Source: a virus. Taken from it: 64,000 nt of DNA. Numbering within the stretch: the stretch's first letter is position 1; every line of letters starts with the position of its first letter. The DNA is taken from positions 1-64,000 of the IMG/VR virus record IMGVR_UViG_3300036766_001793; one strand, written 5' to 3'. The notes beneath the pieces were generated by a model. The model was given only the letters and a program-made list of their open reading frames with translations. It ran no database searches and had not been told where the DNA came from. Shown here piece by piece: positions 3,289-30,620 of this stretch. The position numbers were made by a program, and so were the translations under genes.

Positions 3289-3539
3289 TATGGCCTGGGC
3301 CCGTCACCCGGCGCCGGCGGCAGCCCTCGGCGCGCCCTGCCCGCCGTCCGTCCGCGCCGGCCACTCCGCGATTCAGTGCGCCCATCATACCGCGGCGGCG
3401 GCCCCGGGGGAGGGCCCGGTCTCTCTGCGTGGGCGCCCTGGGCACTTGAGGGCCAGCCGGGGCCCCCTCGGATACATGTTGGGTGCCGGGGGCCCCCCTC
3501 CCACGCAGGATCCATGCGCGGGGTCCCGCATGGCCGGGA

Positions 3540-3570
3540 GGGCGCATGCGGGGCTGCCCCGCATGCGCCC
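3540..3570. terminator. perfect 14-bp hairpin
   Basis: GGGCGCATGCGGGG-CTG-CCCCGCATGCGCCC just downstream of the 3584 stop; no U-tract. Confidence 0.5.
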
Positions 3571-3583
3571 CCCACGCGGCGGG

Positions 3584-4078
3584 CTACAGCACGGCGACGA
3601 TGCGGTTGACGAGCCTGCGGAGCGGCCCCGGCCGGCGGGCGCCCACCAGGCCCCGGCGGGCCGCCTCCGACAGGGGAGGGCCCTTGGGCAGCCGGACGGA
3701 GCGCTCCCTGGCGCCGACCTCCGGCCGGGCCCTGCGGGCCACCTCCCGGAGGCTGGCGAAGTAGGCCGCCCCGACGCGGAGCTCCGACCGGCTCATGGTG
3801 CCGGCGAGGCGCAGGGCCTCGACCGGCTCGGCCCGGGCCGCCAGGCCGAGGAAGTCCTCGGGCGGGCGCCTCGCGTCCGCGTACCTGAGGAGGAGCTTCC
3901 CGGCCCTCAGGTACTGGGCCCTGGTGCCGGCCGACCGGCCGGCGGCCGCCAGGTCGGCGGCGTAGGAGATGGCGCCGAGCGCCGCCTCGCGGGCCGGCGC
4001 CGGCGCCGGGGCGCCCGCCACGTCGGCGACCGTCCCGGTCAGCGCCCGGGCCTGGCTCTGGTTCTGGTTCTGGTTCAT
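3584..4078 (-). CDS. protein with tyrosine-integrase N-terminal (SAM-like) helix pattern, no catalytic domain
   Basis: YAADLAAAGRSAGTRAQYLRAGKLLLRY resembles GxSxxTxxxY core-binding helices; no R-H-x-x-R/Y tetrad. Confidence 0.35.
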   Translation of the reverse strand: MNQNQNQSQARALTGTVADVAGAPAPAPAREAALGAISYAADLAAAGRSAGTRAQYLRAGKLLLRYADARRPPEDFLGLAARAEPVEALRLAGTMSRSELRVGAAYFASLREVARRARPEVGARERSVRLPKGPPLSEAARRGLVGARRPGPLRRLVNRIVAVL

Positions 4079-4116
4079 CCCTGGCTCCCTCTGGTTCCTC
4101 CACCCTCCGCGACATG

Positions 4117-4911
4117 CTACCGGGGCCTGGGGTACGCCGGCTCCAGCGTCGGCCTGAACGACACCGACCTCAGCACGGCGTCGCCCATGTGCGGGTAGGC
4201 GCCCCACAGGAGCCTCTGGAGGCCCGCGAAGCCGCCCGGCGCCCGGCAGCACAGGTCCAGCTCCTCCCTGACCCTCTCCGGGCTCACGGCCTCGGTGCGC
4301 GGGTCCCCGGGGCGGAGGCGGTCGACCCTCCTGAGGGCCCGGGCCAGCTCGTGGTCCGGGGAGAGGCCCCTTGTGATCTGGAACCTCAGAGCCCTGAGCG
4401 CCCGCAGCGGGTCCTCCGCGATCCTGGCGTCGGCCGACCCGACCGCCCTGAGGACCCGCGCCCGCAGGTCCGCCCTGCCGCCGTGCGGGTCGTAGACCGG
4501 GTCCTCGGGGTCGTCCCAGCCGCCGCGGACGGTGGCCCGCAGCATCTCCAGCGGGTCGCGGGTGGCAAGCAGGGTGGTCGGCTCCACCAGGACGGCGATC
4601 GCGTTGCAGGTGAAGTCGCGCCTGGCCAGGTCGTCGGTGATCGTCCCGGGCCGCACCTCGTCGGGCCTGCGCCCGTCGCTGTACGCGCCGTCCGCCCGCG
4701 CCAGGACGAAGTCCGCCGCGGCCAAGCCCAGCCGGGCCCGCACGGTCAGGTACTCCTCCCGCTCCAGGAAGACCTCGCCACCGAGGCCCAGGATCGCGCC
4801 GCGCATCTCCGCGAACGAGCCCGCCTCCACGGTGAAGTCCAGGTCCTTGGACCGGACCCCGAGATACGCGTCGCGGACCGCGCCGCCGACCAGCCAGAAT
4901 CTCGTGTCCAT
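4117..4911 (-). CDS. class II tRNA nucleotidyltransferase (CCA-adding)/poly(A) polymerase family
   Basis: LVGGAVRD...KDLDF, DDLARRDFTCNAIA, EDPLRALRALRF, VSPERVREEL. Confidence 0.92.
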   Translation of the reverse strand: MDTRFWLVGGAVRDAYLGVRSKDLDFTVEAGSFAEMRGAILGLGGEVFLEREEYLTVRARLGLAAADFVLARADGAYSDGRRPDEVRPGTITDDLARRDFTCNAIAVLVEPTTLLATRDPLEMLRATVRGGWDDPEDPVYDPHGGRADLRARVLRAVGSADARIAEDPLRALRALRFQITRGLSPDHELARALRRVDRLRPGDPRTEAVSPERVREELDLCCRAPGGFAGLQRLLWGAYPHMGDAVLRSVSFRPTLEPAYPRPR

Positions 4912-4917
4912 GCCTCT

Positions 4918-4946
4918 ATTGTACCGCGATTCAGTACCGACGTCAA
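4918..4946 (-). promoter_or_regulatory. sigma70-type promoter, probably leaderless
   Basis: TTGACG-17 bp-TACAAT, then 6 nt to ATG at 4911. Confidence 0.8.
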
Positions 4947-4974
4947 GCATGTGGGAGGCCGGGGCCCCCGCGAC

Positions 4975-5457
4975 TTACCTGCCGTCGCGCGCCCGGTCCG
5001 CCCTGGTCTTCGCCAGGTGACACGGCCGGCAGAGGGTGCGCAGGTTCGCCTGGTGGTGGGAGCAGCTGACGGCGCCGTGGGCGCCGAAGGCCCGGGCGAC
5101 GTGGTCCACCTCGTGCGCCTGCCAGCGGAACCGAGGGCCGAGGGCGCCTAGGCGGGCCGCATTAAGCTCCTTCTCGCCGGCACCGCACCCCAGGCAGCGG
5201 TACCCGTCGCGGGCCCTGGCGGCCCTCCTGGCCTCGGTCCACCTGTGGTTGCGCAACCAGTCGAGGCGGCACGCCGGCGAGCACCACCTGGTCCGCCTGC
5301 CGGCCAGGGTGCGCCCGCACCAGACGCAGGTCCCGGGCCCGGCGTGACGGGACAGCGGGCAGCGTTCCGGCCCGGCCGCGGAGGCCGGCCTCGGCCCTCC
5401 CCCGGCTACCCGAGTTCCCCGTTGTCGTGGACGACGTCCCGGTCGCTGGCGGCGCAC
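4975..5457 (-). CDS. HNH endonuclease (start uncertain)
   Basis: CVWC...CSPAC; RDGYRCLGCG...EVDH...NLRTLCRPCH. Confidence 0.85.
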   Translation of the reverse strand: MRRQRPGRRPRQRGTRVAGGGPRPASAAGPERCPLSRHAGPGTCVWCGRTLAGRRTRWCSPACRLDWLRNHRWTEARRAARARDGYRCLGCGAGEKELNAARLGALGPRFRWQAHEVDHVARAFGAHGAVSCSHHQANLRTLCRPCHLAKTRADRARDGR

Positions 5458-5898
5458 TCGAGGCAGAGCCTCCCGTACCGCGAGCAGTCGTCGGCGAAGC
5501 AGACGTCCCTGAGGGCTCGGCGCTTGGAGCAGCCGTCGCAGGGCTCGGTCGTTCTCCTCCGCTCTGGACCGCTCTGGCCCGGCAGGCCGAAGACGGCAGG
5601 CCAGAGGCGGCTGGCCGCGCGCGTCATTCGTCGGCTCACGGGTTCGCCATCACGTGGTGGGCTATGGAGTCGACGGCCCCGGCGTGCTCGGGGCCCGCCT
5701 TGGCGTACCACCAGGACTCCCCGCACGTGCAGACGCTGCGGACGTGGGTGCCGGTGTCGCGGACGTGGTGGATCTGGTGCTTGTGCGCCATCGCTAGCCT
5801 GCTCGCTCGCCGCGGAACTCGCGGGTGGCCGGGAACATGCAGTTCATGCAATCACACCGGCACCGGCTGGAGCGCCCTCGCCCTTCATGGCAACACAT
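5406..5898 (-). CDS. three small Cys/His-rich ORFs (5406-5639, 5636-5791, 5794-5898)
   Basis: adjacent ORFs directly downstream of the cassette promoter at 5928. Confidence 0.45.
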
Positions 5899-5995
5899 GG
5901 GTTCACCTCGTACGTCTTGATGATCCCATTGTACCATTCCTCGACCTCCCCGCCGGCGGGGGAGCGGCATGGACGAGGTTACGATCTGGGCCGCA

Positions 5996-7206: not shown

Positions 7207-7258
7207 TTGGGCGTCCCTCCGTCGATAACCATACCACCCAGGCTGGGCCGGAGGGGAC

Positions 7259-8770: not shown

Positions 8771-9246
8771 CTAGCTCCAAGCCCTGAGGGCCCTTTGCGC
8801 GGCATCCGCCCACAGCGTGCGCCGCCCGTGCCCGTACTCGGGCTGGCCGGTGAACGGGTCGGCCGACCGGCCGTGGAGGACCGGCTCGATGCCGTACCTG
8901 GCGAGCTCCGGCCCCAGGTGGTACGTGTCGAACCACTCGTCCGCGACGCTGGTCCGCCGGCCCGTCATGCGGGAGTGGAGGCCGGCCAGGCGGAGGGCGT
9001 CGCCGTAGCCCAGGCCCCAGTTGAGCATGAGCCTCGAGCCGCCCTCATCCGTGTCGGCCGGGGAGTAGATGTACCACGTGTTCGCGCTCACCACCTCGCC
9101 CTCCCGGTGCGCGTGAGCTCCTTCCTGGAGCGCGTGTCGACGATGATGAAGAGCGGGCCGGCCCAGATGAGGCGCTGCCACCCTGGCTTGTCGGACCAGA
9201 AGCCGACCCGGTGGGCGCTCGTGTTGCGGTAGAAGCGGACGGACAT
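8771..9246 (-). CDS. two coupled hypothetical ORFs (9088-9246, 8771-9091)
   Basis: first ATG follows cassette promoter 9277; GTGA coupling. Confidence 0.55.
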
Positions 9247-9339
9247 TTTCAGGTTCCCTCGTGTCTTGATGATCCTATTGTACCGCCGCCGGAGGGGGCG
9301 CGTCGGCGGGGGATGCGCATGGGCCTGGTTGCGATCCGG

Positions 9340-10449: not shown

Positions 10450-10561
10450 CGTCGTCTCCTGTCCCGCGAGTCCCGGGCAAAGGTGGTGGTGCCATTGTAC
10501 CGCCCCCGGCCTGGGTAGGGCAGCCGGGAGGGCACATGGGTTCTGGTCCGCCGGCCGGTGG

Positions 10562-10726
10562 CTAGCCGCGCGGCCTGTCCTTGAGTGCGATGCGGACGGA
10601 CCGGACCCGCCGGTCGAACTCGGCCACGAGCTCGACGGGATCACGGAGCTCCCAGCCCTGCTCGCGCATCTTCTTAGCGACGGCTTCTTCGATCGACGGT
10701 GGTTTCTTGACGGTAGTTCGGCTCAT
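10562..10726 (-). CDS. hypothetical protein
   Basis: MSRTTVKKPP..., after promoter 10758. Confidence 0.6.
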   Translation of the reverse strand: MSRTTVKKPPSIEEAVAKKMREQGWELRDPVELVAEFDRRVRSVRIALKDRPRG

Positions 10727-10832
10727 CTTGGGTGCTCCCGTGTGTCTTGATGTACTAATTATACACCCTGCCCCTGCGTGGGATCGATAGGGGCGGGGTG
10801 TACGCACGGTTACCGGTTAGTGTTGTCCTGGG

Positions 10833-11027
10833 TCAGTCGTCGCACTCGCTTCGGCCCTCGAAGATGGCCTCGTAGAACCAAGTCTCCACCTCCAACCAAT
10901 CTCCTGTCCCGCCTCGGGCTAAATAGGCCTGGGCCATGCCGATGGCCAGGTCCCCAATGTCCCCCTCGTCTGACCGGCCGTCAGCCACATACTCATCGTA
11001 GATGGCTTGAAGAATGTCCATGTTCAT
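10833..11027 (-). CDS. acidic hypothetical protein
   Basis: after promoter 11058; D/E rich. Confidence 0.6.
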   Translation of the reverse strand: MNMDILQAIYDEYVADGRSDEGDIGDLAIGMAQAYLARGGTGDWLEVETWFYEAIFEGRSECDD

Positions 11028-11165
11028 GGCTTGCTCCCGTATGTTCTTGATGATCCAATCATATCACTCCTCGCCGACCGCGTCGGCCGGGAGGGCACAA
11101 GGATTCGCGGCCGGGCAAAGAGCAACCGCCCGGCCCGGCGGCACGTCGGAACGGCTTCGACGCGG

Positions 11166-11563: not shown

Positions 11564-11649
11564 CGCGAGCTGGCTCCGTGATTTGGTGATCCCATTGTAG
11601 CGCCCCACCGAGACAGCGTCAGCAGGGGAACGGCCGGGATTTCGGCCGC

Positions 11650-11850
11650 TCACGACCGGCACCGGCCTGTCGCGAGGGCACGGCCGACCCCGAAGGCCTC
11701 GCCGTGGAGCCCGTGGCCCTTGAAGACGCTGATAGGCATGCCCTTGCGGACCCGCATGGCCTCCCGACCCTGGCCGCTCCCGCACCCGCCCGGGCAGATG
11801 TCGCCCGCGGTCTTCGGGGTCTTGCACCTGCGGCACTTCACGATGGTCAT
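11650..11850 (-). CDS. small Cys-containing hypothetical protein
   Basis: MTIVKCRRC..., after promoter 11879. Confidence 0.5.
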   Translation of the reverse strand: MTIVKCRRCKTPKTAGDICPGGCGSGQGREAMRVRKGMPISVFKGHGLHGEAFGVGRALATGRCRS

Positions 11851-12038
11851 CCCGCACCTCTTGTGTGTTGTTGATCCCATTGTACCGCTTCGCCGCCCCG
11901 CCGGCGGCCGGGAGGGCGCTAGGATTTCAGACCCTAGCACCCTGCTGGCGCTAAGCCAGCTCGACCTCCATCACCTCGATGTACCCGATTGGATCGTCTT
12001 TCCCGTCCAGCGCGACGAACTTCCGGAGCTTGTGACGT

Positions 12039-12209: not shown

Positions 12210-12303
12210 GGTGGGTCTCCGCGTTTGTGATGTATCTATTGTACCGCCCTGCCAGGCCCGCCGTCGGCGGGGGAGCTGCCTGGATCCGGTTGCGATCCGG
12301 TTA

Positions 12304-12664
12304 CTACTCGAACGATCGGGCCCAGCAGCCGAGGCAGGACATCCCCTGGTGCAGTGGCTTGTCGCCCCCGCAGGTCCAGCACCGGCCGACCCAGTGCCAC
12401 CCGCCGCAGTCGCACTCCTCCGCGCCTGGCGGGCCCTGGAGGCAGGAGCAGAACTCCGGCCGGCACGAGTCGTCGCACGATTCGCAGCACTTGCTACGCG
12501 GCTCGTCCTGCACGGAGCGCCTCCTTCGCGGCTCTCAGCCGCCTCTTGGTGATCCTGACTGGCCTCTCCGGCCGGGCGACCGTCAGCAGCCCACGGCCGG
12601 CCATCCCCATCCTTCGACGCTTGGCCTCGAGCCTGCGGTCGCGGTTGGTCTGTTCGTACTCCAT
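12304..12664 (-). CDS. basic peptide (12494-12664) and Cys-rich peptide (12304-12513)
   Basis: after promoter 12671. Confidence 0.45.
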
Positions 12665-12920
12665 GATCATATTCTACCGCCCTATGGAGCCCCCGTCGGC
12701 AGGGAGGACACATGAGTTTGGCCGGGTTCCAATTTGCCGGTTATCCGATGGCCCGAGCTGAGTGGGCTAACCCAGCTCAGCCGCACGCAGGCCGCCACGA
12801 TCACTCGCTGCATCACCGGTCCCGCGAGTCCCGAGATGACTCGCGGCAGAATCACGTACTGGGCATCGCCGCGCACGCTCCGTGCGAAGCAGTGTCGGCA
12901 CGTGCTCCGCTGCGTGAGGG

Positions 12921-13109
12921 TCAGATAGCCCCCGCGACCAGCCGTTGGAACCGCGTCTCCCTCACCGGCCGACCGCCCACTTGCAAACGAAACACGTGCC
13001 CTCGACCAGGCACGTCCCGCATTCGCGGCACCAGGCCAGCGACCCCGACGGGAGGACAGAACTGGCGGAGCCGGCGCTCGATGCGGCGGCGGGACGGAAG
13101 GATGCTCAT
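12921..13109 (-). CDS. hypothetical protein
   Basis: after promoter 13137. Confidence 0.5.
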   Translation of the reverse strand: MSILPSRRRIERRLRQFCPPVGVAGLVPRMRDVPGRGHVFRLQVGGRPVRETRFQRLVAGAI

Positions 13110-13492
13110 GGGTCGCCTCGTGTGTTTGATGGTTCCATCTTACCGCCCAGGCCGGCCGGCCGTCGGCCGGGGGGACGCGTGGACGGGGTTGCGATCGGGT
13201 TGCTGCGCGATGTCCGCTTGTCCTTCGTCCATCTCACGTTCGCCGTCCATTCCGGATGCTCGCGGGCGATGTGCCGCTTGAGCCAGGCGCGGAGGCTGGT
13301 GTAATAGGAGGCGAGGTTGGTGTCCGACAGCGGGCGGCCCTCAGCGGCGGCCAGGACCCTGATATAGGCCACACCACCCTTCAGCGGGTCGCGCTCGTTG
13401 GCGGCGGTCCGCCGCTCGAAGCACACCCGGCAGACCTTGTGGTCGAGAGTCAACATGTCGTACCAGCCGACCGGGTTGATGAACTGGTTCAT
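13106..13492 (-). CDS. hypothetical protein reading through the next repeat
   Basis: MNQFINPVGWYDM...CRVC; the repeat TAA position reads CAA. Confidence 0.5.
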   Translation of the reverse strand: MNQFINPVGWYDMLTLDHKVCRVCFERRTAANERDPLKGGVAYIRVLAAAEGRPLSDTNLASYYTSLRAWLKRHIAREHPEWTANVRWTKDKRTSRSNPIATPSTRPPGRRPAGLGGKMEPSNTRGDP

Positions 13493-13707: not shown

Positions 13708-13801
13708 TGGGCTCGCCTCGCGTGTGTCTTGGTGATCCCATCGTACGGCATGGGCGGCCGCGCGTCGGCGGGAGAACTGCGTGAGGCGAGTTGCGATCCG
13801 G

Positions 13802-14220: not shown

Positions 14221-14307
14221 GGCTTTACCTCGCGCTCGTGATGAATCCATTGTACTGCCTCCCGGCCCCAGCGTCGGCTGGGGAGCGGCATGGGACTGGT
14301 TGCAGGA

Positions 14308-14747: not shown

Positions 14748-14901
14748 GGCTTTTCTCCTCGTGTGTCTTGATAACTCTATTATACCCCTCCCCGCCGAAC
14801 GTGTCAGCCGGGGAGATGGCTAGAGTTCCGACTGACCGGAACTAGCGACGCGGGTCGCCGAAGATGGCCACGCTCGTTCGACCGCGTCGGCGGGGAGGGC
14901 G

Positions 14902-15502
14902 CTAGGGTTTGAGGTGGCGCTCGCTGAGCTGGCGGAGGACCTCCTGGGCGATCCCCAGGTCATCCAGCGCCTCGAGTGGCTCGAGCTCGAAGTAGGCGAC
15001 GATCTCGTGCGGCGCCGCGTCGTCCAGGTCGGCCCCGGCGAGGTAGACGTCCACGCACGCGCGCCCCCTCCTGTCCGGCAGGGCGTTCAGCCCGACCCCC
15101 CTGAGGGCAAAGGCCACCGCGGCGGCCCGCTGGTCAGCCGGCCCCATCGGGCCGGCCCTCCCCGACCGTGACGAAGACTTCGATCCCCATCGGGTTCGGC
15201 GTGTCCACGACGAACGCCGGGGAGCACCCGCAGCCGCACCCGGCGGTCCGGCTCCACGGGGCTTTGGTCCCGGCCGGGAGGCCGAGCCGCTCGAGGACCT
15301 CCGGGAGGACGTGCTTGCGGTAGGCGACGTGCGGCTCGCTGCCGCGGGCGACGAAGCTCTGGAGGATGGTCTGCCTCTCGGTCCAGATGTAGATCCGCGT
15401 CTTGGCGAACCGGCCGTACCCGTAGCCGTTGTACCGGCCGCTCCCGTTAGCGCGGTTGGAGGCGCCCTCGCGGGCCTCGAACTGGGTGATGGCGAGTTCC
15501 AT
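14902..15502 (-). CDS. two hypothetical ORFs (15134-15502, 14902-15147)
   Basis: WSRTAGCGCGCSPAF motif; after promoter 15533. Confidence 0.6.
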
Positions 15503-15573
15503 GGCTTGCACCTCTTTTGTGTTGGTGATCCCATTGTACCGCGCGGGGGAGGCGGCCGTCGGCGGGGAAGGCG

Positions 15574-16268
15574 CTAGAAGCGCGGGCGGGCCGGGAAGAG
15601 GAAGTTGAGGGCCTTCTCGAGCATCCGCTCCGTCGCGGCGTCGGACGAGTCGCGGATCCCGGACCAGTCCCCGTGCGTGCCCGCGCCGGCGCCGTATCCG
15701 TCCGCCTCGGCCTCGAGGTCCAGCCCGAGGTCCCACGCCTCGCGGATGAGGAACAGCGGGAAGCCGGCGGAGAAGCTGGAGTAGAAGCCGGACCCCGGGA
15801 GGTCGAGCACGACGTCCTCGCCGTCCGCCATTCTCACGGGGACCCTCGTCGGGCCAAAGCCAGTGTGGTATTCCTCGCCCTCGAAGCCGCTCCAACTCCC
15901 GGACCGGTCGCCGTTCAGCCTGAGGCCCCTGAAGCGGTTCATGGCCTGGCCTCCGCGCCGCGGCGCGCCTTCAGACGGGCAGCGTACTGGTCCATCGTGA
16001 GGTTCCGCGGCAGCGGCCGGCGGCCGCGGTCGAAGCGGTCGACGTAGGTGCTCGGGATGTCCTCGGGCCGGACCTCGGGGTGCCGGTCGAGGAAGTCAGA
16101 GGCCTCGACGTCCTCCTCCAGGTAGATCGCCCCACGCCCGCCCGTCGCCTCTGAGGCCTGGCCAGCCCAGTACCCGTACCCCGTCGCGCTCTCGAGCGCG
16201 TCCGGGTACTCCGCGAGCTCGACCCTGAGCCATCCGTGGCCGGGGTCCGATACGAACCTGAGCGCCAT
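15574..16268 (-). CDS. two coupled ORFs (15939-16268 with DPGHGWL...YLEED motif; 15574-15942)
   Basis: after promoter 16297. Confidence 0.65.
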
Positions 16269-18549: not shown

Positions 18550-18620
18550 GTCGGGCCTCCTCGTTTGCTTTGGTGATCCAATTGTACCGCGTCCCTGCGC
18601 CGGCGTCGGCCGGGGGGACG

Positions 18621-19266
18621 CTAGGATTCCTGGCCCAGCGCCGCGGCCAGGGCCGCCTCCAGGGCCGCCCGCTCCCCGGCGGTGGCTCCGCCGGGAGCGT
18701 CGCCGTACCTGACGGCCGGGCGCCGCTGATCCGGCGGGCGCTTGACGACGCGGGCGGCTGGCGGCTCGGCGGACAGGCGCGCCCTGACGGTCGCCGGCAG
18801 CCTGATGGCAGACCCCCTCCGGGGCCGCGGCTGGCGGACCGGCTTCCCGCGCACTGCCCGGCCGAAGCCGTAGCCGGCGGCGAGGGCGCACGCCGAGAGG
18901 ACCGCCAGGGTGGCGACGAACCCGGTCACTGCGTAGATGATTTCCATCTCAGTCGGCCTCGGCGTGGATCATCACCGCGCCGCTATTTATTAGGCCCTGG
19001 TAGAGGTCCAGGGTCCGGCCCGCGGCCGCCATGCGGCCCGCGAAGCGGCGGGCGTCCCGGTCGCGGAGGGACTCCCAGTTCCCCGCCTCTAGGAAGGCGT
19101 AGAAGCCGATGCTGACGTCGCCCACGATGCGGACCGCGAGGCGCGGCCCGTCCCCCAGCACTTCCGCCACCCTGCGGCCGCCCCCGAGGTAGGTCTCCCT
19201 GACGGTCACCCCGCCGGCGTGCTCCATGAGCCGGGTCCTCGAGTCCTGGTCCGTCGTCTCTGGCAT
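18621..19266 (-). CDS. hypothetical protein (18949-19266) and membrane-anchored protein (18621-18947)
   Basis: after promoter 19298. Confidence 0.55.
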
Positions 19267-19581
19267 CTCGCGCCCCCTCTTGTGTCTTGGTGATCCCATT
19301 GTACCGCCCCCGGCCGGCTCGGCGCGGCCGGGAGGACGCAGGGGTTCAGGAGATCTCACCGCCTTGGCGGCGCACCCCGGCCACGTCTCGTTGACCTGAG
19401 CCGCATCGGCCTCGGCCAGCGGGCGGGTGGCGTAGGTGACGGCCGGCTGCTCGGTGGGCTCCTCGTCGTCCGCGACATAGTAGCCGGCGAAGCCGCCGGG
19501 CCCGTAGACCTCGACGGCGAACCAGTCCTCGGCGGGCCTGCACTCCTCGCACGCCTCAGGGTCGTGGGACCGCTGGAAGCG

Positions 19582-19872
19582 CTAGTCCTCGAGGGCCTCG
19601 GCCATCAGCTCGGCCGCCCGCGGGCCGAAGCCGCCGACGTGCCACGAGACGAGGGCCTCGCGGCGCATGCCGCGGTTCTTATAGTCGTAGACGGTGGCGA
19701 CGGTCCCGTCCCCGAAGCGGACGACCCACTCCGCGAGGGTCTTGTCCCCTGCCGGCAATGGCTCGCCGAGCATGCCGGCCAGCTCCTCGAAGGTGGTCGG
19801 TTTCGGGAGGTAGCCCTGGAGGCTGGAGCCGAGCGAGCGGCGCCAGTCGTTGACGGTCTTGTAGGTGAGCAT
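19582..19872 (-). CDS. hypothetical phage protein
   Basis: SSLQGY...GDKTLAEW...ATVYDYK...WHVGG; after promoter 19904. Confidence 0.65.
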   Translation of the reverse strand: MLTYKTVNDWRRSLGSSLQGYLPKPTTFEELAGMLGEPLPAGDKTLAEWVVRFGDGTVATVYDYKNRGMRREALVSWHVGGFGPRAAELMAEALED

Positions 19873-19951
19873 TGGTTCAGCCTCCGTGTGCGTTGGTGAT
19901 CCAATTATGCCTCCCCGCGGGACCGGCGTCGGCAGGGAGGGCGCATGAGTT

Positions 19952-20182
19952 TTAGAGGGCCAGTTCCCGCGGCCCGCCGTGGGCGGGGCAGGCTAGGGCG
20001 GACGAGTAGCCATGGCTCCACAGGCCGCCGAGCCACTCCCCGTAGCGCCGCTGGCCAGGCTCCTGGTCGCCGTATGCAGGCTCGTCGCAGAACCCTGCGG
20101 GAGAGCCGCCCGCCCAGGATGGGACGCCGCACCTGCCGACGCCATCGGTGAGTTCTTCGTGGTGTCGGCTATGCCGCGCCAT
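19952..20182 (-). CDS. small Cys-containing hypothetical protein
   Basis: TGATG coupling to upstream gene. Confidence 0.5.
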   Translation of the reverse strand: MARHSRHHEELTDGVGRCGVPSWAGGSPAGFCDEPAYGDQEPGQRRYGEWLGGLWSHGYSSALACPAHGGPRELAL

Positions 20183-20616
20183 CAGTCCGACCCCCGGTTG
20201 TTCTCGTCCTCTTCGTCCTCGCTGTAGCGGCATTCCTCGCCGCAGTCGCCGCCGCCGCATTCGGGGCACTCCGGGTCGGAGTTGGGATCCTCGTCGAAGT
20301 AGACGTGCAGAGCGACCACGCGCCCCTCGCCGTTCTTCTCGACGTAGACTGGGTACCTCCCATCGCCGTAGCCGGAGGAGGCGGCCACGGCCATCCCTCC
20401 GCCGAGCTCGCCGTGGCCGGCACCCGAGCAGCTGGCCTGGCTCGCGCCCTCGTAGGAGTAGCCGAACGGCGGCTTCGTGGCCCCCTCTGAGTCCAGGTCC
20501 ATGAAGAGCCCATCCGTGTTGACGAACTCCTTCAGGTAGCAGGGGTCGCCGACCATCACCTGCCCGCTGTCAACCATGACGTGGCCGGCCAGGGCGGTCT
20601 CGGTTCCGTGTCTCAT
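20182..20616 (-). CDS. DUF4241-like protein
   Basis: VDSGQVMVGDPCY...SGYGDGRYPVY. Confidence 0.6.
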   Translation of the reverse strand: MRHGTETALAGHVMVDSGQVMVGDPCYLKEFVNTDGLFMDLDSEGATKPPFGYSYEGASQASCSGAGHGELGGGMAVAASSGYGDGRYPVYVEKNGEGRVVALHVYFDEDPNSDPECPECGGGDCGEECRYSEDEEDENNRGSD

Positions 20617-20686
20617 TTCGTTCACCTCGTTTGCGTTGGTGATCCCATTGTATCGCGTCTCCGCGGCCTAGTCGATATGGAGGGGG

Positions 20687-21539
20687 CTAGGGTTTCAGCG
20701 ACCTCGGGGCCTGGCGGAACCTGCTGACCAGCTCGAGGACAGAGGTCCCGGCCGGCGTGAGGGCCAGCCCGGTCCCGCCGCACTCCTGGCACTCGTGCTC
20801 CTCAGGGCAGTCGGGGTACTCGGTGAGGGAGCCCAGCGGGGTCTCGGCCAGCGCGGCCTCGTTCGTGACCTGCCAGTCCTGCCAGAGCGGGCAGTGTTGC
20901 ACCCCGCAGGCCTCGCAGTGCCCGCAGCGGTCCGCGAGGCGGACGGAGTGGTAGGTCTCCCCCTCGTGCCAGGGCATGATGATCGGCTCAGGGCGCGGCA
21001 TGGTGGCCCGCCTCGGCCTTGTAGGCCGCGAGCCCTTGGCAGGCCTCGATCTCGCCGGCCGTCAGCGGCTTGAGCTCCATGATGCGAGCCATGCGCTCGT
21101 GGAACCCCTCGTCGTCCTTGGCGCCCATGACTGCCTCCTCGAAGCGGAAGTAGTCCACCGGGCTGTCGTCGCAGTCGTCGTGGTCCAGCGCCCCGCCGAA
21201 GACGTCCACCAGCCTGCGGCACGCGGCGACCCAGAACGGGGTCGACCGCGGGAGGAGCTGCCAGCCGAACCCGTGCTCGCCCGTCGCGTGGATGTGCACG
21301 AGGTGGCCCTGCGGGGCGGCTGGGTCGACGGGGCTGTCGAAGGCGATGGCCCCCATCCCGAAGTGGACGCCCACGGCCTTGAGGGAGACCCTCGGCCGCG
21401 GGACGTAGAAGCCGGACCCGGTCCGGCTCTCGCCGACGAGCTCCCGGTCGACGGGGTTGCCGGCGAGGATGGACAGGGCGTTCGCCACGTCCTGTGGCTC
21501 GGCCGAGCGGTAGAGGAAAAGCTTGCAGTCGACTCCCAT
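20687..21539 (-). CDS. hypothetical protein (20988-21539) and zinc-finger protein (20687-21001)
   Basis: after promoter 21570; CQECGGTG. Confidence 0.6.
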
Positions 21540-21656
21540 TGGGTCGCCTCCGTGTGTTTTGATGTTCTGATTGTACAGCGTCTCCGTGGCCCCGTCGGCC
21601 GGGAGGGCGCAGGAAAATGTGGCGGCCGCCGTAGCGGCCGCCCGCCGTAACGCCCG

Positions 21657-22670: not shown

Positions 22671-22754
22671 CCTGTTGGTTCTCCTTGTGGCTTGATGTAC
22701 TGATTGTACCGCCTCCGCCGGCCCGTGGATGCAGGGCCGACGCAGGGATCCTGG

Positions 22755-23087
22755 CTACGAGCGGCGCGTCTTGAGGATGGCCTTGAGGTCCCGCAGGTCC
22801 GCGAGCATCGTCTTGCGGGTGTACGACGGGACGGCCCGCTGCACCGAGGCGAGCATGCGGTCCCCGATGATGTCGAGGAGGTCGCGGCGGTCGAGGCCGT
22901 AGCTGTCCCTTTTGGCGTAGAAGTCGCGGCCGACGTTGGCGGGGTCGACGACGACCTCGGCGTCGCACCAGGGCCGCCAGTGGTCGTGGGGGGTCGAGTT
23001 CTCCCAGGCCCCGTCGCTGATCTGGCCGGACAGCTCCTCGTCGAAGAGGATCTTCTGGGCCTGGTTACGGACGGCGAGTGTGTTCAT
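22755..23087 (-). CDS. hypothetical phage protein
   Basis: ELSGQISDGAWEN...HW; after promoter 23117. Confidence 0.7.
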   Translation of the reverse strand: MNTLAVRNQAQKILFDEELSGQISDGAWENSTPHDHWRPWCDAEVVVDPANVGRDFYAKRDSYGLDRRDLLDIIGDRMLASVQRAVPSYTRKTMLADLRDLKAILKTRRS

Positions 23088-23194
23088 CTGTGGTCTCCGT
23101 TTGCCTTGATGTACTGATTGTACTGCCTCCGCGGCCCCGCGGATGCAGGGGGGCCGCGAGAATTGCCGCGGCCGGCCGCCGCGCCGCCGATGGC

Positions 23195-23391: not shown

Positions 23392-23658
23392 GGTGTGCGA
23401 GCAGGCCGTCGCGGCGCTCGTGGAGGGCGTTCATCGGCCGACCGCCCTCCGGTGGTTGAGCCTGCAGCAGACCAGGCAGACGGCCCCGAGCATCGCATCG
23501 ACTGGGTTCATGCTGCGCCCGCATTGGAAGCATCTCTGGCGCGCCCCCGCCCCCGCTTGGGCTTCCGCCTTATCGGTATTGTCATTCAAGTCCTGTGTGC
23601 CTCCTTGCTTATGTGTTCATGATACTGAATCCGCAGGACGGCGGATGCAGGGAGGGCA

Positions 23659-23919
23659 CTAGGATGCGTCGCCGGCGAGGAAGCTTACGATCGCCCGGCG
23701 GGTGAGCTTGATGCCCAGGGCCTTGCACGTGTTGCGGAAGGCCAGGCCGTCGTGGCTGAACGAGCCCCTTACGACGGCGGCGCGCATGCGCGCGAGGACG
23801 ACCGGCACGTCGGCAGACCCGTAGGCAAACATTTCCGGGTGGGCCTCCACGGCGACCTGCAGCTCGCGGGCGTAGGCCTCCATGAAGCGATCGAGGTTCT
23901 TCACCATGTCGGTGGGCAT
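23659..23919 (-). CDS. hypothetical protein, first gene of the leftward arm
   Basis: after promoter 23949. Confidence 0.65.
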   Translation of the reverse strand: MPTDMVKNLDRFMEAYARELQVAVEAHPEMFAYGSADVPVVLARMRAAVVRGSFSHDGLAFRNTCKALGIKLTRRAIVSFLAGDAS

Positions 23920-24084
23920 GTCCTGGCTCCTTGTGTCTTGGTGGTACTAATATAACAAGCCGGACGGATGGGCACAGCCGGGGGGAAGCTAGAAGATCCC
24001 GCGGGGATCCCTGCGCCCTCCCAGCCCCGGCCGCCCCTGCGACTCCGTATAATAGGTACACCAAGATACATGGGAGGCCACAAG

Positions 24085-24360
24085 ATGCTCAAGCCAATGA
24101 AGGCGACCCTCGGCGGTGCCATCCACCCCAGCGGCCCGGTGAAGGGCTACGAACACATCGCGTACGTCTGGATCGACCTGGGCGACGGCACGACCCTCGC
24201 GCTCTTCTTCAACCGGGAGACGCGCCTGCTCGTGGCCGAGGTGTCCTGCCTGGAGGGGGGCGGGCACGAGTTCGTCCGCACGTCCGCCCCGCGGCTCTCC
24301 GAGGCCTTCCGCCGCGGGCTCGAGGAGCCGGCCGGCGACCTCTGCGGGGCGGCCCTGTGA
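24085..24360 (+). CDS. hypothetical protein, first gene of the rightward arm
   Basis: GGAGG RBS after TATAAT at 24048. Confidence 0.65.
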   Translation: MLKPMKATLGGAIHPSGPVKGYEHIAYVWIDLGDGTTLALFFNRETRLLVAEVSCLEGGGHEFVRTSAPRLSEAFRRGLEEPAGDLCGAAL

Positions 24361-24449: not shown

Positions 24450-25478
24450 GTGAAGTGCCTAGTGTGCGCCCTGGACCGCCCGCGGGGGGCCTTCGACGAG
24501 CGCACGGGCTCGGCCGTGTGCGCGGGCTGCCGCGACGCGGCGCGTCCCCCCGCGCGCCCGAGGGAGGTCTGGTCCGCTAGCTTCCTGCCGGACGGGTGCG
24601 GCTGGCTCGCGGTCGCCGGGCTCTTCGAGCGCCGGGAGGACGCCCAGGCGCGCTGCGACGCGGCCAATGCGGGGGAGGGCGGCAGGCACCTGTACCGGGC
24701 GGTGCGGCTCGAGGTGGCCCCTGCCCTGCTCTAGCGCCCTCCCGGCTGCGCCGGCTCCCCGGGATTCAGTACAATGGGATCATCAAGCGCGAGGGGGCGA
24801 CCCAGATGAGCATCGGAGATCCTGCGGAGGCGACCGCGCGGGCCCAGTCCCAGGGCTGGCCCGACGACGCCCTGTACCTGATGCGCCTCGCCCGGCGGCT
24901 CAGGGGCCTGTCGGGGTGCGGCTCGGCCGACTGCGGGGGCGGCCCGGGCCGCTGGGCGGACGACGCCGGGCGGCTGGACGGCGTCGCGGGGCGGCTGGCC
25001 GAGGCGGAGCGGGCCGACCGCCTGCTGCTGGGGGACTGCCTGGGGCTGCTCGGGGACCTGCTCGGGCCGTGCAGCCGGGGCTGCGGGTGCCTGGCCCACG
25101 GCCTGCGGGCGCGCCTCGGGCTGCCGGACGGACGGGCCGACCGGTGACCCTCCCGACCGTTATGTAAGCGTTTATGACGCATTTCGGCAGCTGCCCCCCT
25201 GCCGGGGGACCTTTCGGACATAAGAGCTGGCGAACGTGAGGGAAAACATGGCGGACGGCGATGGAATCGCGCGCCTGGCGGCCTCGCTGAGGCTCTTCCG
25301 GGAGCTCGAGGGGCCCGGGGCGAGGGCCGCGCGGCTCGGGGCCGGGCACGCCTGGTGGCTCCCGTCCGGGCGCCCGCCGGCGTGGTCCTGGGTTCACCCG
25401 GACGGGTCGGCCTGCCCCGGTCCCCCCTCCCCCCGGTCCGCGGGGCGCCCCGCCGCGCGCCGCCCGGCCGCCCCCTGA
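24450..25478 (+). CDS. three hypothetical ORFs (24450-24734, 24806-25147, 25248-25478)
   Basis: RBSs; CxxC motifs. Confidence 0.5.
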
Positions 25479-25635
25479 TCTCTATACCGCGCGCGCGAGG
25501 GAGGGCCGGGACCCGCCCCATGGCCCGGTGGGCTTGCCTCACAGAGGTGGTTGGCCTCTTTCCCTTCCCGGGGGCAAGCCCCCGGACCCCCCACCCGGAC
25601 GGTGCCGGTATCATTGGGTTGCAGGAGGGTGCTCC

Positions 25636-26379
25636 ATGGGCAATGAATCCGCGATATATTCGGACGGCGCCGTGCCGGGCTGGCTGGTGGCGGCCGCCGA
25701 CGCGGAGGTAGCCAGGCGCTACGCCGACCTCTCCCGCTGCGCCGAGGTCCTGGCCGCCCAGCGCGACCTCTACCTCCAGGCCCTCGCCGCGGTCGAGGAG
25801 GCCCTCACGTCGGAGGGAGGGTACCGCCCGCTCGACGGCTGGTGGGGCACCCTGTTAGCTGAGCCGTCCTCGATCCCTAGCCCCAGGGGGCCTATGCCCC
25901 CTGGAACCCCCGGGGTCCATGCGCCCTCCCGGCCGCGCCGGCCGGGGGGAGGTTTCAGTATCATTGGATCACGAGGAGGAGGCCGACACATGAACGACGG
26001 ACCAGAGGGCAACGCCTGGGCGTGGACGTGGGCGGAGCTGGAGGCGTACGCCCGCGAGGGGCGCATAGACAACGGCCCGCTGGTGGCGCGGCTGCGCGAG
26101 CTGGGCTGGCGACCGAGCGTGCGCCACGAGCGCCTCTACGGCGGCCACGGCGGCCAGGCGCTCGCCCGCGGCGGCAGGACCCTGGCGTTCGCCTCGCGGT
26201 TCGTCGGCGGGGACGAGATCGGGACGACCATCACCGTGGGCTCGGCCGCGCGCTGCCGCCCGGACGAGGCGTACGTGCGCAAGGCCGGCGCGCGGCTGGC
26301 CCTCCAGCGGCTGCTCGCGGCCTGCGAGGCCCTGCCGCTGGCGCCCGGCCCCCTGGCGGCGTGCGAGGCCCTGCCGTGA
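25636..26379 (+). CDS. two cassette genes in one open frame (starts 25636 and 25990)
   Basis: each start has its own promoter repeat and RBS; no stop between them. Confidence 0.55.
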   Translation: MGNESAIYSDGAVPGWLVAAADAEVARRYADLSRCAEVLAAQRDLYLQALAAVEEALTSEGGYRPLDGWWGTLLAEPSSIPSPRGPMPPGTPGVHAPSRPRRPGGGFSIIGSRGGGRHMNDGPEGNAWAWTWAELEAYAREGRIDNGPLVARLRELGWRPSVRHERLYGGHGGQALARGGRTLAFASRFVGGDEIGTTITVGSAARCRPDEAYVRKAGARLALQRLLAACEALPLAPGPLAACEALP

Positions 26380-26985: not shown

Positions 26986-27531
26986 ATGGACCTCGCCCGG
27001 GGGGCAGGCACACAGCGCCTGGGCGACTGGATGCAGACCTACACCGGGCTGCAGTTCTGGCCGCTCGACCCACGGCCGGGCGAGGTCCGCGCCGAGGACG
27101 TCGCCCGCGCGCTGTCGATGCAGTGCCGCTTCAACGGCCACTCCGAGGCCTTCTACAGCGTCGCCCAGCACTCGGTCCACGTGTCCCGGCTCGTCCCGCC
27201 CGAGGACGCGCTGTGGGGGCTGATGCACGACGCGGCGGAGGCGTACGTCGGGGACATGATCCGGCCGATCAAGACGCCGGAGTTCAGGGCGATGGAGGAC
27301 GGCGTGCTGAGGGCGGTCGCCTCCAGGTTCGGGCTGCCGTGGCCCGCGCCGCCGTCGGTCCGGGAGGCCGACGGGGCCGCCCTGGCGACCGAGGCGCGCG
27401 ACCTGATGAAGGCCCCGCCGGCGCCGTGGGAGCCGCTGCCGCCGCCTGACCCGAGGCCGATCCTGGCGCTGGGGCCGAGGGAGGCGGAGCTGGAGTTCCT
27501 CGGCCGCCTCCGGCATCTCGCGGGCGGCTGA
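26986..27531 (+). CDS. HD-domain 5'-deoxynucleotidase (YfbR/YfdR-like)
   Basis: QTYTGLQF...ALSMQCRFNGH...YSVAQHS...LMHDAAEAYVGD..RPIK. Confidence 0.92.
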   Translation: MDLARGAGTQRLGDWMQTYTGLQFWPLDPRPGEVRAEDVARALSMQCRFNGHSEAFYSVAQHSVHVSRLVPPEDALWGLMHDAAEAYVGDMIRPIKTPEFRAMEDGVLRAVASRFGLPWPAPPSVREADGAALATEARDLMKAPPAPWEPLPPPDPRPILALGPREAELEFLGRLRHLAGG

Positions 27532-27607
27532 TCCCCTGCGCCCTCCCGGCTGTGCCGGGCCTTCGGGATTCAGTACAATGGAACCACCACACGCAAGGAG
27601 GCCACCG

Positions 27608-27793
27608 ATGGCCAAGCGCACCTACAGAGTGACCGTCCAGATAGAGATCCACGGGGCCCTCCTCTCCGACGAGGACTTCGAGGAGACGACGAAGTACATC
27701 GACGACCCGGAAGGCCTGGCATCCGACCTGGAGGCCTTCTTCGACAACGCCATGATCACGGCGACCTCCGTGAGGGTGGAGGCCGGTCCGTGA
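27608..27793 (+). CDS. small acidic hypothetical protein
   Basis: AAGGAGG RBS after promoter 27574. Confidence 0.65.
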   Translation: MAKRTYRVTVQIEIHGALLSDEDFEETTKYIDDPEGLASDLEAFFDNAMITATSVRVEAGP

Positions 27794-28171
27794 CCCGCCG
27801 TTTCACCTGGCGCATCCTTCCCGTCACCGTAAAAAGCATACGGGAAGAAATGCAACAGGACTACAGCCACGCACTATTCTCAATTCAACGCATGCGGTGG
27901 CTCGCCGAAGAGCTGTCCAAGCTCCCGGCCGAGGGAACCACCACACAATCAGGACCCAGGCAGTGACGACGGTGTGGCACGCGACGGGGGCCGGCCTCAC
28001 CGCCCTCTGCGGCGCGACGAGCTTCCACCTCATCAACCGCCGCTACGCCGGGCTGGAGCTGGACTACGGGCGGTGGTGCCGGCGCTGCCTCAGGCTCGCC
28101 GGGGAACGAGGGCGCATCCCCCCAGCTGCCGCGGCCCCGCGCCGGGGTGGCACACGTCAGGAGCCTGAGAA

Positions 28172-28420
28172 ATGACGGTATGCCAGCATGCACTATGCCG
28201 TGGGTACGACGTCTCGGTGCAATTCGAGAGCCACGTCGCTAAGTGCGCCGTCGGGTGTGGCGAGAGCTTCTCCGGCGGGCACAAGCAGACACTAGATTGG
28301 GCGAGCCGGCACGTCGAAGGATGGTACTGGCACATAGTCACGGTGCAGGAGACGACCACCATCCACGGCGTGAAGGCCTGGCCGGGGTTTTCCCGTGGCT
28401 GCGGGCGCGCAAAGCCTTGA
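28172..28420 (+). CDS. hypothetical protein
   Basis: AGGAG RBS; Cys/His motifs. Confidence 0.45.
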   Translation: MTVCQHALCRGYDVSVQFESHVAKCAVGCGESFSGGHKQTLDWASRHVEGWYWHIVTVQETTTIHGVKAWPGFSRGCGRAKP

Positions 28421-28448
28421 CCGCCTGCTTTGACTGGCTGACCCAGCT

Positions 28449-28694
28449 ATGATAAACAATGGGGAAATTGACATGGGCTCAGGCGTCGCGATCCGTTGGG
28501 ACGAGGACGGACGGGGGTTCCTGTGGAGGCACCCTGGATGCCGGTCCTGGGCGAGCCTGAGCTTCGCGCCAGGGCTGTGCACCGGCCACCGGCTCGTCTG
28601 CGCCGACCCGCTGACCGTCGAGGGCTCGCTGCTGTGCCCGATGGGGTGCGGCGCCCATGGGTTCATCCGCAACGGGAGCTGGGTGCCGGCGTGA
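28449..28694 (+). CDS. DUF6527-like small protein
   Basis: PLTVEGSLLCPMGCGAHGFIRNGSW. Confidence 0.5.
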   Translation: MINNGEIDMGSGVAIRWDEDGRGFLWRHPGCRSWASLSFAPGLCTGHRLVCADPLTVEGSLLCPMGCGAHGFIRNGSWVPA

Positions 28695-28779
28695 GGGTTC
28701 CTGCGATCCCCCAGCTGCGCCTGTCGCCGAGATTCAGTACAATTGACACACTACACGCAAGAAGGACAATGGAAACCAC

Positions 28780-30620
28780 ATGAACATAACAGTCAGTAAT
28801 ACACAGGGTCGGCTGGCTGAGGTCTCACAAAGGGAGGACGGCGTGTTTGCTTGGGCTCCCACCGGGTTCCCGGTGCCGCTCGACTCGTGCCAAGAGTACG
28901 GGCTGGCCGCGCTGTCATGCTACGACGAGGCCGCCCAGACGAGGGCCGTCCGCCGGGAGAACGGCGAGGTGATGCGCCGGCACCGCGAGCTGCATGGTTC
29001 CGTAGGGCGCTCACGCGAGGAGGCGGCCGAGGTCAGGGCGGCCTTCTGGCGGGTGGCCGCGGGTCGGGGGTTCACCGCATGAGCAGCACAGTCAACATCG
29101 CCGAGGCCATCCAGGAGGTCAGGGCGGTCCTCGCGACGGGCTCCACCCGGGCGCCCTGGAAAGAGGGCGGCCGACTCAAGCCGCAGCGACAAAGGGAACA
29201 GGAAGCCCGGTCGGGCGCCCCCGCACCTGCGATCCCGTTCTACATAGCGCCATCCGGAAAGATACACAAGGTCCTCTCCGGGGTCTGCTGCGCCCGGCCG
29301 GGCGCCGAGTCCCTGTGCCACAAGGAGATCGGCCCGGACTGGCTGCCGCTCTTCGAGCCGTGCGGCCCGCCGTGCCTGTGCAAGAGGTGCTTCAGTTGAC
29401 GGAGTCAAGGGGAGAGGACACATGACGGAGGATGATGCCACCGTCGCCGCGCTCCTCACCGGGATCACCTGCAGCGCCCTCACGGTGGCTGTCCTGTGGC
29501 TTCTCGGGGTGGTGGACCTGCTGCCGGCGGCGGAGTGGGGACTCAGGATATTCTAGCGCCGCCCCAGCTGTCGACCAGGGCTGAATTCAGTACAATGGAC
29601 ACAACAGACCAAGGAGAATGCCGCTGTGCGAAAACGCAAGATCACCATGGGCAGGGCCCTGGGGGCTGCAACGAGTGGCTAATGGAGCTCTTGGACGAGA
29701 GCTGCGACCCAGGGGCCATGGAAATCCGCCGGCACGTGGCATCCTGCAAGGGCGGCGTGCCGGCCCTGGCGCTACGGAGCACGCTCGACGCCTCTATTCG
29801 GCACCTTGAATCTCTCGTGCTCTCTGGCGCGCCGCACCGAAATGCCGCCGATCTTCGGCACGACCTCGGCGTCTACCGAGGGGCCCTCGGCCGCCCGGTG
29901 CGGGGAGGACGATGATGACGCTCTACGTTGATATCGAGGGCACCCTGCTCCACCCTGGCACCGGCCAGCCGTGGCCCCCTCGCCGATATTAGGACCGACT
30001 CCATCGTCCACCGCTGCGACGGGTGCGAGCACGAGCACGAGAGCCTCAGGGCGGTCGTCCTTCGAGCAGACTACGTGGGCCCTGTTGCCTCCTCCAATGA
30101 GAACACGGCCCAGTGAAAGGGGTACATGAGTGGCGACAATAAAGCTGGAGACCAGTGTGACGCTGGAGATGAGCCTGCAGGAGGCCTGCTTCCTGTACCG
30201 GCTCCTGCGGGAATCCAGGCCAGAGTGGGTGGGTAACGACCTCCTGTCGGGACTGTCCAGCGTCATCGACGAGGTGCGCCGGTGGACGACCTTGGAGGCC
30301 TTCCCGTGATCGCCGCCGCCTTCGCGGCCCTGGTGCTGGTCCACATCTGCCTCGTGGCCGCGGCGCTCCTCGGGCTGCTCGAGAGCTGGTGCCCGCTGCC
30401 GGCTGAGGGGCCTGCCCTGCACATCGCCGGAAGGCCCAACGGGCCCAGGCTCTCGCTGTGGCAGTCCACGCGGCGCCTTCTGGGCCTGCCCCACCGCGGC
30501 TACCCGCTCTGGTGCGGCTATTGCGGGACGGAGGTGCGCGGCCGCTGGCTCTGGGGGTACAGATTCGACTGCTCCCGCGGGAGGCCGTACTTCGGGGTCC
30601 GCGCTGGGCCGGGGGGTTAG
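28780..30620 (+). CDS. run of small hypothetical ORFs (28780-29082, 29079-29399, 29422-29556, about 29682-29915, about 29912-30116, about 30282-30620)
   Basis: adjacent ORFs after promoters 28738 and 29591; the run converges on the minus-strand block at 30617. Confidence 0.5.

Follow-up and report, generated by a model that had tools for sequence, protein, structure and literature searches.

In this study, a repeated intergenic module was analysed in a window of 64,000 nucleotides (nt), namely bases 1-64000 of the 165,484-bp virus record IMGVR_UViG_3300036766_001793 from IMG/VR. The modules, each about 85 bases long, stand between small genes and belong to one repeat family, which is confined to a single region, has a set orientation and spacing relative to the genes, is conserved in the manner of a promoter, has a counterpart in a sister phage and accompanies a hypervariable gene content. 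The modules are likely to be promoters read by the host RNA polymerase under its main sigma factor, each joined to a standard leader and heading what are probably early or accessory genes in two divergent arms. A second, leaderless promoter class of the same record was used as an internal control.

The core 22-mer of the module, searched with up to 3 mismatches, gave 10 matches compared with 0.00 expected in shuffled sequences. A profile made from the copies and run with nhmmer on the whole record recovered 31 full copies (E 2e-19 to 2e-8) plus one truncated copy at 14879-14914, all of which fall within 5898-29624; the remaining ~135 kb of the record contained no full copy and nothing at E<0.01, the best match there having E = 0.02. 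Such a count by motif model had been proposed in the preliminary description of this DNA, which was made from the letters alone, and the repeated module reported there is thereby upheld. Its estimate of about 34 copies was close to the mark, with 31 clear copies and a total of ~36 only if degenerate ones are counted, but the start of the array had been placed too far out, at 3384, and 3384-5900 was found to be without a good copy. Degenerate copies or other promoter-like sites occur in the gaps 3267-3583, 7207-7258 and 25479-25635.

A total of 25 copies are located on the minus strand between 5.9 and 24.0 kb and 6 on the plus strand between 24.0 and 29.6 kb, each oriented toward the gene behind it. 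The array is thus composed of two divergent arms that leave one point at 24.0 kb, 25 copies leftward and 6 rightward, with the innermost two copies back to back at 23919-24092. This strand switch is absent from the preliminary description. Because nothing reads into the innermost pair, transcription of both arms must start there, and the palindrome midway between its two -10 boxes is a candidate operator controlling both arms. The copies, with coordinates and E-values from the nhmmer profile search, are listed below, followed by two features of other kinds.

5898 to 5978, minus strand, E 1.4e-14: last module of the leftward arm, heading a 5-gene unit
9243 to 9330, minus strand, E 1.2e-15: module heading a 7-gene unit
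10468 to 10547, minus strand, E 4e-10: module
10722 to 10795, minus strand, E 2.4e-8: module with the variant TATAAT
11022 to 11110, minus strand, E 3.8e-17: module
11577 to 11648, minus strand, E 4.6e-14: module
11843 to 11931, minus strand, E 1.5e-19: module with the best score
12198 to 12291, minus strand, E 6e-13: module
12634 to 12723, minus strand, E 5e-12: module
13102 to 13185, minus strand, E 2.4e-12: module
13711 to 13788, minus strand, E 2.5e-10: module
14223 to 14301, minus strand, E 3e-14: module
14750 to 14830, minus strand, E 1e-13: module with the near-consensus CTGACA-17-TATAAT (11/12 hexamer matches)
14879 to 14914, minus strand, E 2.9e-4 over model positions 9-44: truncated copy reduced to the upstream half, with stop codon, C-box and GCCGACG but lacking the -10 box and leader
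15501 to 15585, minus strand, E 4e-17: module
16265 to 16349, minus strand, E 4e-18: module
16815 to 16905, minus strand, E 1.3e-17: module whose spacer is identical (16/16) to that of 19266-19354
18551 to 18632, minus strand, E 3e-19: module
19266 to 19354, minus strand, E 1.5e-18: module, spacer twin of 16815-16905
19869 to 19958, minus strand, E 2.4e-16: module
20610 to 20702, minus strand, E 1.1e-14: module
21538 to 21622, minus strand, E 8e-17: module with a terminator-like hairpin and T-run just upstream (21621-21642)
22672 to 22755, minus strand, E 8e-14: module of the TGCATCC sub-type, heading the DUF932 gene
23079 to 23169, minus strand, E 2e-15: module of the TGCATCC sub-type, heading a conserved 110-amino-acid (aa) gene at 22755-23087
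23587 to 23668, minus strand, E 1.6e-9: module
23919 to 23998, minus strand, E 5e-10: first module of the leftward arm, back to back with 24001-24092
24001 to 24092, plus strand, E 1.2e-15: first module of the rightward arm
24725 to 24811, plus strand, E 1.6e-16: module
25907 to 25976, plus strand, E 2.8e-10: module with a short leader
27527 to 27624, plus strand, E 1.9e-14: module
28694 to 28787, plus strand, E 2.2e-11: module
29545 to 29624, plus strand, E 2.7e-9: last module of the rightward arm
23995 to 24009, no strand, by direct reading: palindrome GATCCC-GCG-GGGATC, midway between two divergent -10 boxes
4912 to 4974, minus strand: promoter of the other class, TTGACG-17-TACAAT, 6 nt before the ATG (leaderless) of a CCA-type nucleotidyltransferase gene

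Units of 1-3 genes, as previously described, account for 26 of the 31, although the 7-gene and 5-gene units listed above also exist. Unit length has a median of 717 bp and protein length one of 91 aa. The genes of the arms, ~64 in all, are small and mostly orphans; of 60 proteins scanned from the array region, about 50 had no Pfam match, and the family matches were DUF932, DUF4241, a phage peptidase, a dNMP phosphatase and the CCA-type enzyme. No paralogous cassette genes were found, and repeated DNA was limited to the modules (up to 83 bp). Two diverged module copies were also noticed near the far contig end (record 159.6-159.7 kb and ~161.9 kb). On account of these copies the array probably continues across the contig ends, which suggests that the genome end lies inside or beside it.

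The arrangement of the module is as had been described: CCCTCCC, GCCGACG (with CCGACG in the -35 position), a GC-rich spacer, TACAAT, GGGATCA-YCAAGACAC, GAGG and the start codon. With the seventh base after the -10 box numbered +1, and counting over the 31 copies, conservation peaks between -12 and +5: T at -12 (30/31), A at -11 (31/31), A at -8 (30/31), T at -7 (31/31), C at -1 (30/31), A at +1 (31/31), C at +3 (27/31) and A at +4 (30/31). Positions 3 and 4 of the -10 hexamer vary, so that the near-invariant bases form TAnnAT, in agreement with the TAnnnT of main-sigma -10 boxes, in which A2 and T6 are invariant (each 31/31 here). The C-A pair at the 6th and 7th nt after the box is invariant save for a single C. 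Read in this way, the conservation pattern of the module is that of a -10 box together with its start site. The leader is C/A-rich and G-poor from +1 to about +12 and is followed by the ribosome site GAGG(TG), a region of moderate conservation (G in 16-22 of 31 at +13 to +16). The whole leader measures 22-27 nt, with the ribosome site 5-9 nt before the start codon, and the called start codon lies 28-33 nt after the -10 box in 23/31 copies.

Upstream of the -10 box, CCCTCCC spans roughly -44 to -38 and GCCGACG -36 to -30; in 27/31 copies the sequence CCCnRC has its first base 28 or 29 nt ahead of the -10 box. Three sub-types coexist at the -35 position (GCCGACG, GGCTGYGCC and TGCATCC). CCGACG sits 17 nt from the -10 box and has only G-A-C in common with TTGACN; a hexamer scan requiring 9 of 12 matches was passed by only 3 copies. 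Most copies have C-15/G-14 rather than the T-15/G-14 of an extended -10 box. The 16 nt between the upstream box and the -10 box are hypervariable, with a mean pairwise identity of 7.6 of 16 (standard deviation 1.8). Farther upstream, about half of the copies have a TGAAATCCTAG-like sequence and six have a GTAACCGGATCGCAACC block; these blocks contain a TAG or TAA at which the preceding open reading frame (ORF) often stops. Among the 30 copies with a same-strand upstream ORF, 19 have the end of this ORF inside the upstream edge of the module, at 35-63 nt from the -10 box. The module as a supplier of stops in three frames was considered and rejected, as most copies have stops in only 1-2 frames. 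A GTAACCGGATCGCAACC sub-family was seen on the minus strand at 9300-9330, 12260-12291, 13160-13185 and 13765-13790; its block consists of two (G/C)(T/C)AACC words 11 bp apart, the TAA of which stops the preceding ORF.

The whole record was then scanned for TAnnAT followed by N bases and by an ATG or GTG opening a good ORF, at spacings of 0 to 15. The arrangement TAnnAT-N6-ATG/GTG was found in 19 cases, compared with 0-6 at any other spacing, and an N6 peak is present in the sister phage G001 too (11 versus at most 3 elsewhere). The genes concerned are conserved structural and replication genes spread across the record, and four of the promoters fall in the window (4923, 39101, 59413 and 62365, minus strand). 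Since the first base of these 19 leaderless genes must be the transcription start, the start would lie 7 nt after the -10 box, which is the distance of the C-A pair in the modules. The preliminary description had put the start about 7 nt after TACAAT, which coincides with the C-A pair as well as with the geometry of the 19 leaderless promoters. Both classes have a cGGTAcnAT flavour of the -10 box in common. None of the 19 leaderless promoters has the CCCTCCC / GCCGACG box, which is therefore specific to the module class; the leaderless promoters show no conservation in the -35 region except at the PolyA_pol/CCA-type nucleotidyltransferase gene (4117-4911, minus strand). That gene has the sole canonical TTGACG-17-TACAAT promoter in the region, which confirms the true TTGACG ascribed to it earlier. 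Judged by these patterns, the phage uses two promoter classes, a leaderless -10-only class for the conserved genome and a leadered module class in the array only.

In the favoured reading, host RNA polymerase with its main sigma factor would recognise the TAcAAT -10 box, next to which lies the G-rich discriminator GGGAT, and transcription would most likely start at the invariant A of the C-A pair. The mRNA would open with A-Y-C-A-A, continue through the C/A-rich, G-poor leader of 22-27 nt and then reach GAGG(TG). The class-specific upstream box in the -35 region would probably set strength or timing, via sigma region 4 or a further factor. With genes packed as stop, promoter, leader and 1-3 small ORFs, the 31 units in the two arms would express the ~64 mostly orphan genes. 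The real start site, the use of host polymerase and the early timing are what we infer, and the assignment to early or accessory genes is made because gene turnover in the array is much quicker than elsewhere in the genome, as is usual for such phage genes. The co-regulated regulon proposed in the preliminary description can be retained in the form of what appears to be one class of co-oriented promoter-leader units before orphan genes in a hypervariable region. Several points count against the promoter reading: the -35 position resembles the usual TTGACN at G-A-C only, the conservation from about -65 to +25 exceeds what sigma contacts alone explain, and early timing is proposed solely by analogy.

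The phage record has a G+C content of ~70% and is listed as linear, with a completeness of 87%. Its products include a tail tube protein as well as one of 1766 aa that carries an M23 peptidase domain and that we take to be the tape measure; a RecA-family gene is located at 147.8-148.9 kb. A search with PF00562, for which the control was valid, found no RNA polymerase beta-subunit gene in the record; PF00940, for single-subunit RNA polymerase, gave no match either, but its positive control was also silent. A 232-aa ORF at record positions 150066-150764 (L170:1027-1725, minus strand) gave a sub-threshold match to sigma-70 region 2 (16 bits); it is conserved in G001 at 30% identity, has no PHROG match, and may encode a phage sigma-like factor. 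The high G+C content, the leaderless starts and the spread of DUF932 matches suggest an actinobacterial affinity of the host, and no WhiB gene was found in the record. Rfam families and tRNAs were absent from 1-32 kb. GATC was counted 618 times genome-wide versus 477 expected; it was judged neither avoided nor enriched, and an idea involving Dam/GATC was dropped.

Relatives were sought with a 472-aa conserved protein of unassigned function, which matched nine related viral contigs. Among cultured phages no relative was found, either at the nucleotide level (megablast with the array) or by tblastn with the 472-aa protein. G001 (172 kb), with 79% identity in this protein and colinear over the structural and replication regions, is the only usable relative and is too distant for base-level breakpoints. 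Homologues in G001 were found for 6 of the 64 array genes, compared with 40 of 77 genes in the structural region and 41 of 62 in the replication region, and the three common array genes that could be ordered stand in a different order there. G001 has an array of its own, with ~20 modules, a divergent pair at the start, and 1-3 small genes behind each module. The geometry of its modules, TGnTAnnAT followed by six bases, C-A, a leader rich in C and A and then GGAG, matches that of the present ones, but the sequence words are others, with GCTCTC and an extended -10 (TGn) replacing the C-box and GCCGACG. Four further relatives (G002-G005, 60-78% identity in the 472-aa protein) gave no match to either module model, and k-mer counts showed no comparable repeat in them; having just 2-3 early-region genes in common with the record, they are uninformative. 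Exact-motif scans of viral, metagenome and genome collections did not find the exact module in close relatives and returned only single chance matches, in contigs that are unrelated and mostly of low G+C. For two array genes, the DUF932 gene and the 110-aa gene, proteins with 80-82% identity are encoded on contigs of 4.7-18 kb, and a search of the viral collection with the DUF932 protein yielded no viral contig.

The upstream box is the one feature not fully accounted for by ordinary sigma contacts, and may be a weak -35 contact or a factor site. If it were bound by a dedicated activator or repressor of phage or host, the 31 promoters would be a switchable temporal class, for which the MotA box of T4 middle promoters provides the model; this is possible, although we are inclined to doubt it. 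The rigid placement of the box at 28 or 29 nt speaks for such a factor, as do the hypervariable spacer that parts it from the -10 box, so that the box is conserved independently, and its absence from the 19 leaderless promoters with a like -10 flavour. The sister phage moreover has a different box (GCTCTC plus TGn) in its place, and the box was never improved to TTGAC though one promoter in the region has TTGACG. Nevertheless, no DNA-binding candidate was identified among the array proteins scanned, C-rich ten-mers of this type are common by chance in this genome, and three coexisting sub-types of the -35 box are hard to read for a single sequence-specific protein. Many high-GC Gram-positive promoters need no -35 box, which also counts against the dedicated factor. 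The wider proposal of a dedicated-factor class in which the sister lineage swapped to an extended -10 box, with ~20-30 promoters per genome rewritten in concert, is unlikely in our judgement; if true, the concerted rewriting would need gene conversion or module-mediated replacement. It is more improbable again that the upstream half of the module acts on the preceding transcript as a terminator, Rho loading site or processing/stabiliser hairpin, in a terminator-promoter composite like that of the promoter-early stem-loop (PeSL) cassettes. The ends of preceding ORFs within the upstream edge of the module would suit such a role, and about half of the copies can form a GC stem of 5-9 bp between the C-box and the G-rich spacer (z below -1 in 14/31), but the mean minimum free energy of -46 to -2 was -16.8 kcal/mol compared with -19.2 in GC-matched control windows, and the mean z versus shuffles was about -0.6. 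In-register covariation was not found, RNAalifold returned zero consensus pairs in 30 copies, and the stem is followed by no U-tract, the C-rich tract being only ~25 nt long; a separate hairpin with a T-run precedes two modules only. The hairpin was thus rejected as a conserved feature of the module on the basis of its free energy above the controls, the lack of covariation and the lack of RNAalifold pairs.

The preliminary description had also regarded the repeats as recombination joints in an integron-like array. That the modules, besides being promoters, are joints at which cassettes are gained, lost or swapped by homologous recombination through a RecA/UvsX-like phage recombinase is a tentative proposal that we hold to be rather unlikely, and the evidence for recombination at modules is weak. 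The RecA-family gene, the hypervariable gene content (6/64 in common with G001), the different order of the three orderable genes and the restriction of repeats to the modules, with cassette genes free of paralogy, are all compatible with it. The identical 16-nt spacers of 16815-16905 and 19266-19354, a 4.7-standard-deviation outlier, indicate a recent copy with unrelated genes behind the two modules, while the truncated copy at 14879-14914, 50 nt before a complete module of another sub-type, looks like a rearrangement scar. Similarity between modules also declines slightly with distance (rho -0.21, permutation p 0.008). On the other hand, mean pairwise module identity is ~55%, and at least 20 identical bases occur in only 5 of 465 pairs, which makes the modules a poor substrate for homologous exchange. 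In the alignment with G001, the only relative compared in this way, some gene-order junctions fall at modules and several do not: a difference of ~3.7 kb between the homologues of 20988-21539 and 16896-17273 ends at module-free gene junctions, and an extra gene of G001 directly follows the homologue of 22755-23087 with no module between. The stronger form, in which site-specific recombination sites flank promoterless cassettes as in an integron, is effectively refuted and its probability negligible. Its likeness is confined to the superficial layout of many small unrelated genes parted by a repeated element; no tyrosine or serine recombinase (PF00589, PF00239; integrase, resolvase) was matched in the 165-kb record, with both controls valid, the repeat has no conserved inverted-repeat structure, each unit has its own -10 box and start site, and in both arms the repeats point in the direction of transcription.

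Repeated promoter cassettes of early genes are already on record for other phages, and we regard the array as a clear case of them, involving no new mechanism; similar arrays have been published for T4-type, SPO1, T1-like and actinobacterial phages. T4-type phages carry the PeSL cassettes in their hyperplastic regions (Arbiol et al. 2010, PMC2839356; Comeau et al. 2014, PMC4122927). The modules resemble them as a repeated composite regulatory unit between small orphan genes in a fast-evolving region, with a host-type early promoter in the repeat (here by sequence only) and no dedicated recombinase beyond the general recombination genes of the phage. PeSL cassettes combine a stable terminating stem-loop with a consensus -35 box and an UP region rich in A and T, and indels and mini-circles mediated by them have been shown experimentally (PMC2839356, PMC4122927). 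In the modules, by comparison, the stem-loop is not conserved (mean z -0.6, zero consensus pairs), the box upstream is rich in C, and the -35 position agrees only in part with the consensus. The hyperplastic character with orphan genes is evident from the 6 of 64 genes in common with G001, versus more than half elsewhere.

Early promoters of the Bacillus phage SPO1 are ordinary strong sigma-A promoters and are not known to form one 85-bp repeat family. The SPO1 host-takeover module comprises 24 small genes in the terminal redundancy, organised in many short units that are transcribed early by host polymerase (PMC10531801). The array is similar in that small genes, most of them orphans, are packed together close to a genome end, but its timing is proposed by analogy, and the record, linear and 87% complete as classed, does not show a terminal repeat. 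Among actinobacteriophages, the start-associated sequences (SAS) and ESAS of Cluster K mycobacteriophages and Cluster EF, and the 18-bp and 30-bp repeats of Microbacterium clusters EC and EI, are likewise asymmetric, placed in short intergenic gaps, co-oriented with transcription and lineage-specific, and lie at a fixed distance of 14-30 nt before start codons (PMC7302621). They measure 13-30 bp in 5-19 copies, compared with ~85 bp in 31 copies here, and the 13-bp SAS is centred on the ribosome site directly ahead of the start codon, whereas the module peaks at the -10 box and start site. The T1-like phage TLS has 21-nt intergenic direct repeats, ~18 of them co-oriented before start codons, with no polymerase of its own and few recognisable sigma-70 promoters; it differs in sequence and host group, and its repeat is a separate upstream box that was left open in function (PMC11447400). 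The stoperators of Cluster A mycobacteriophages are 13-14 bp asymmetric operators bound by the repressor of a temperate phage; in the present record no integrase was found and no repressor was identified.

These results show cleanly, and with an internal control, how an uncultured large high-GC phage uses its promoters, with 31 leadered ones for fast-evolving orphan genes versus ~19 leaderless ones for the conserved genome. The two-class picture predicts start sites to the base and delimits the accessory gene set, and the modules would be ready-made strong promoter and leader parts for high-GC hosts. The comparison with G001 suggests that promoter families are rewritten wholesale in each lineage and offers a tractable case for the study of concerted evolution of regulatory repeats.

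The best-conserved array gene is that at 22755-23087 (minus strand), the 110-aa product of which has an invariant GQISDGxWEN motif and homologues in 57 viral contigs with G+C contents of 28 to 67%. Its AlphaFold model, although confident (pLDDT 82.6), matched no PDB fold, the protein belongs to no Pfam family, and no clue to a regulator was obtained from either. In quite different phages, the homologues of this gene, or genes 1-2 kb upstream of them, are headed by TAGAAT-GGATYTATCAA, which was recorded in loci L311, L312, L313, L316, L322 (G+C 63%), L331 (40%), L335 and L336 (~43%), with 2-3 copies in L331 and L335. This sequence is like the module core TACAAT-GGGATCA-TCAA in words and spacing; the likeness may reflect a common promoter/start-site preference or common descent. 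Another promoter-like unit, composed of a TTGAAA-like box, TAGAAT, GGATTTATCAA and a hairpin-like start CCTTCGG, was met in the unrelated contigs L367, L373, L376, L382, L391, L400 and L406 only because it contains the searched 17-mer, and by its layout it looks like a small-RNA gene.

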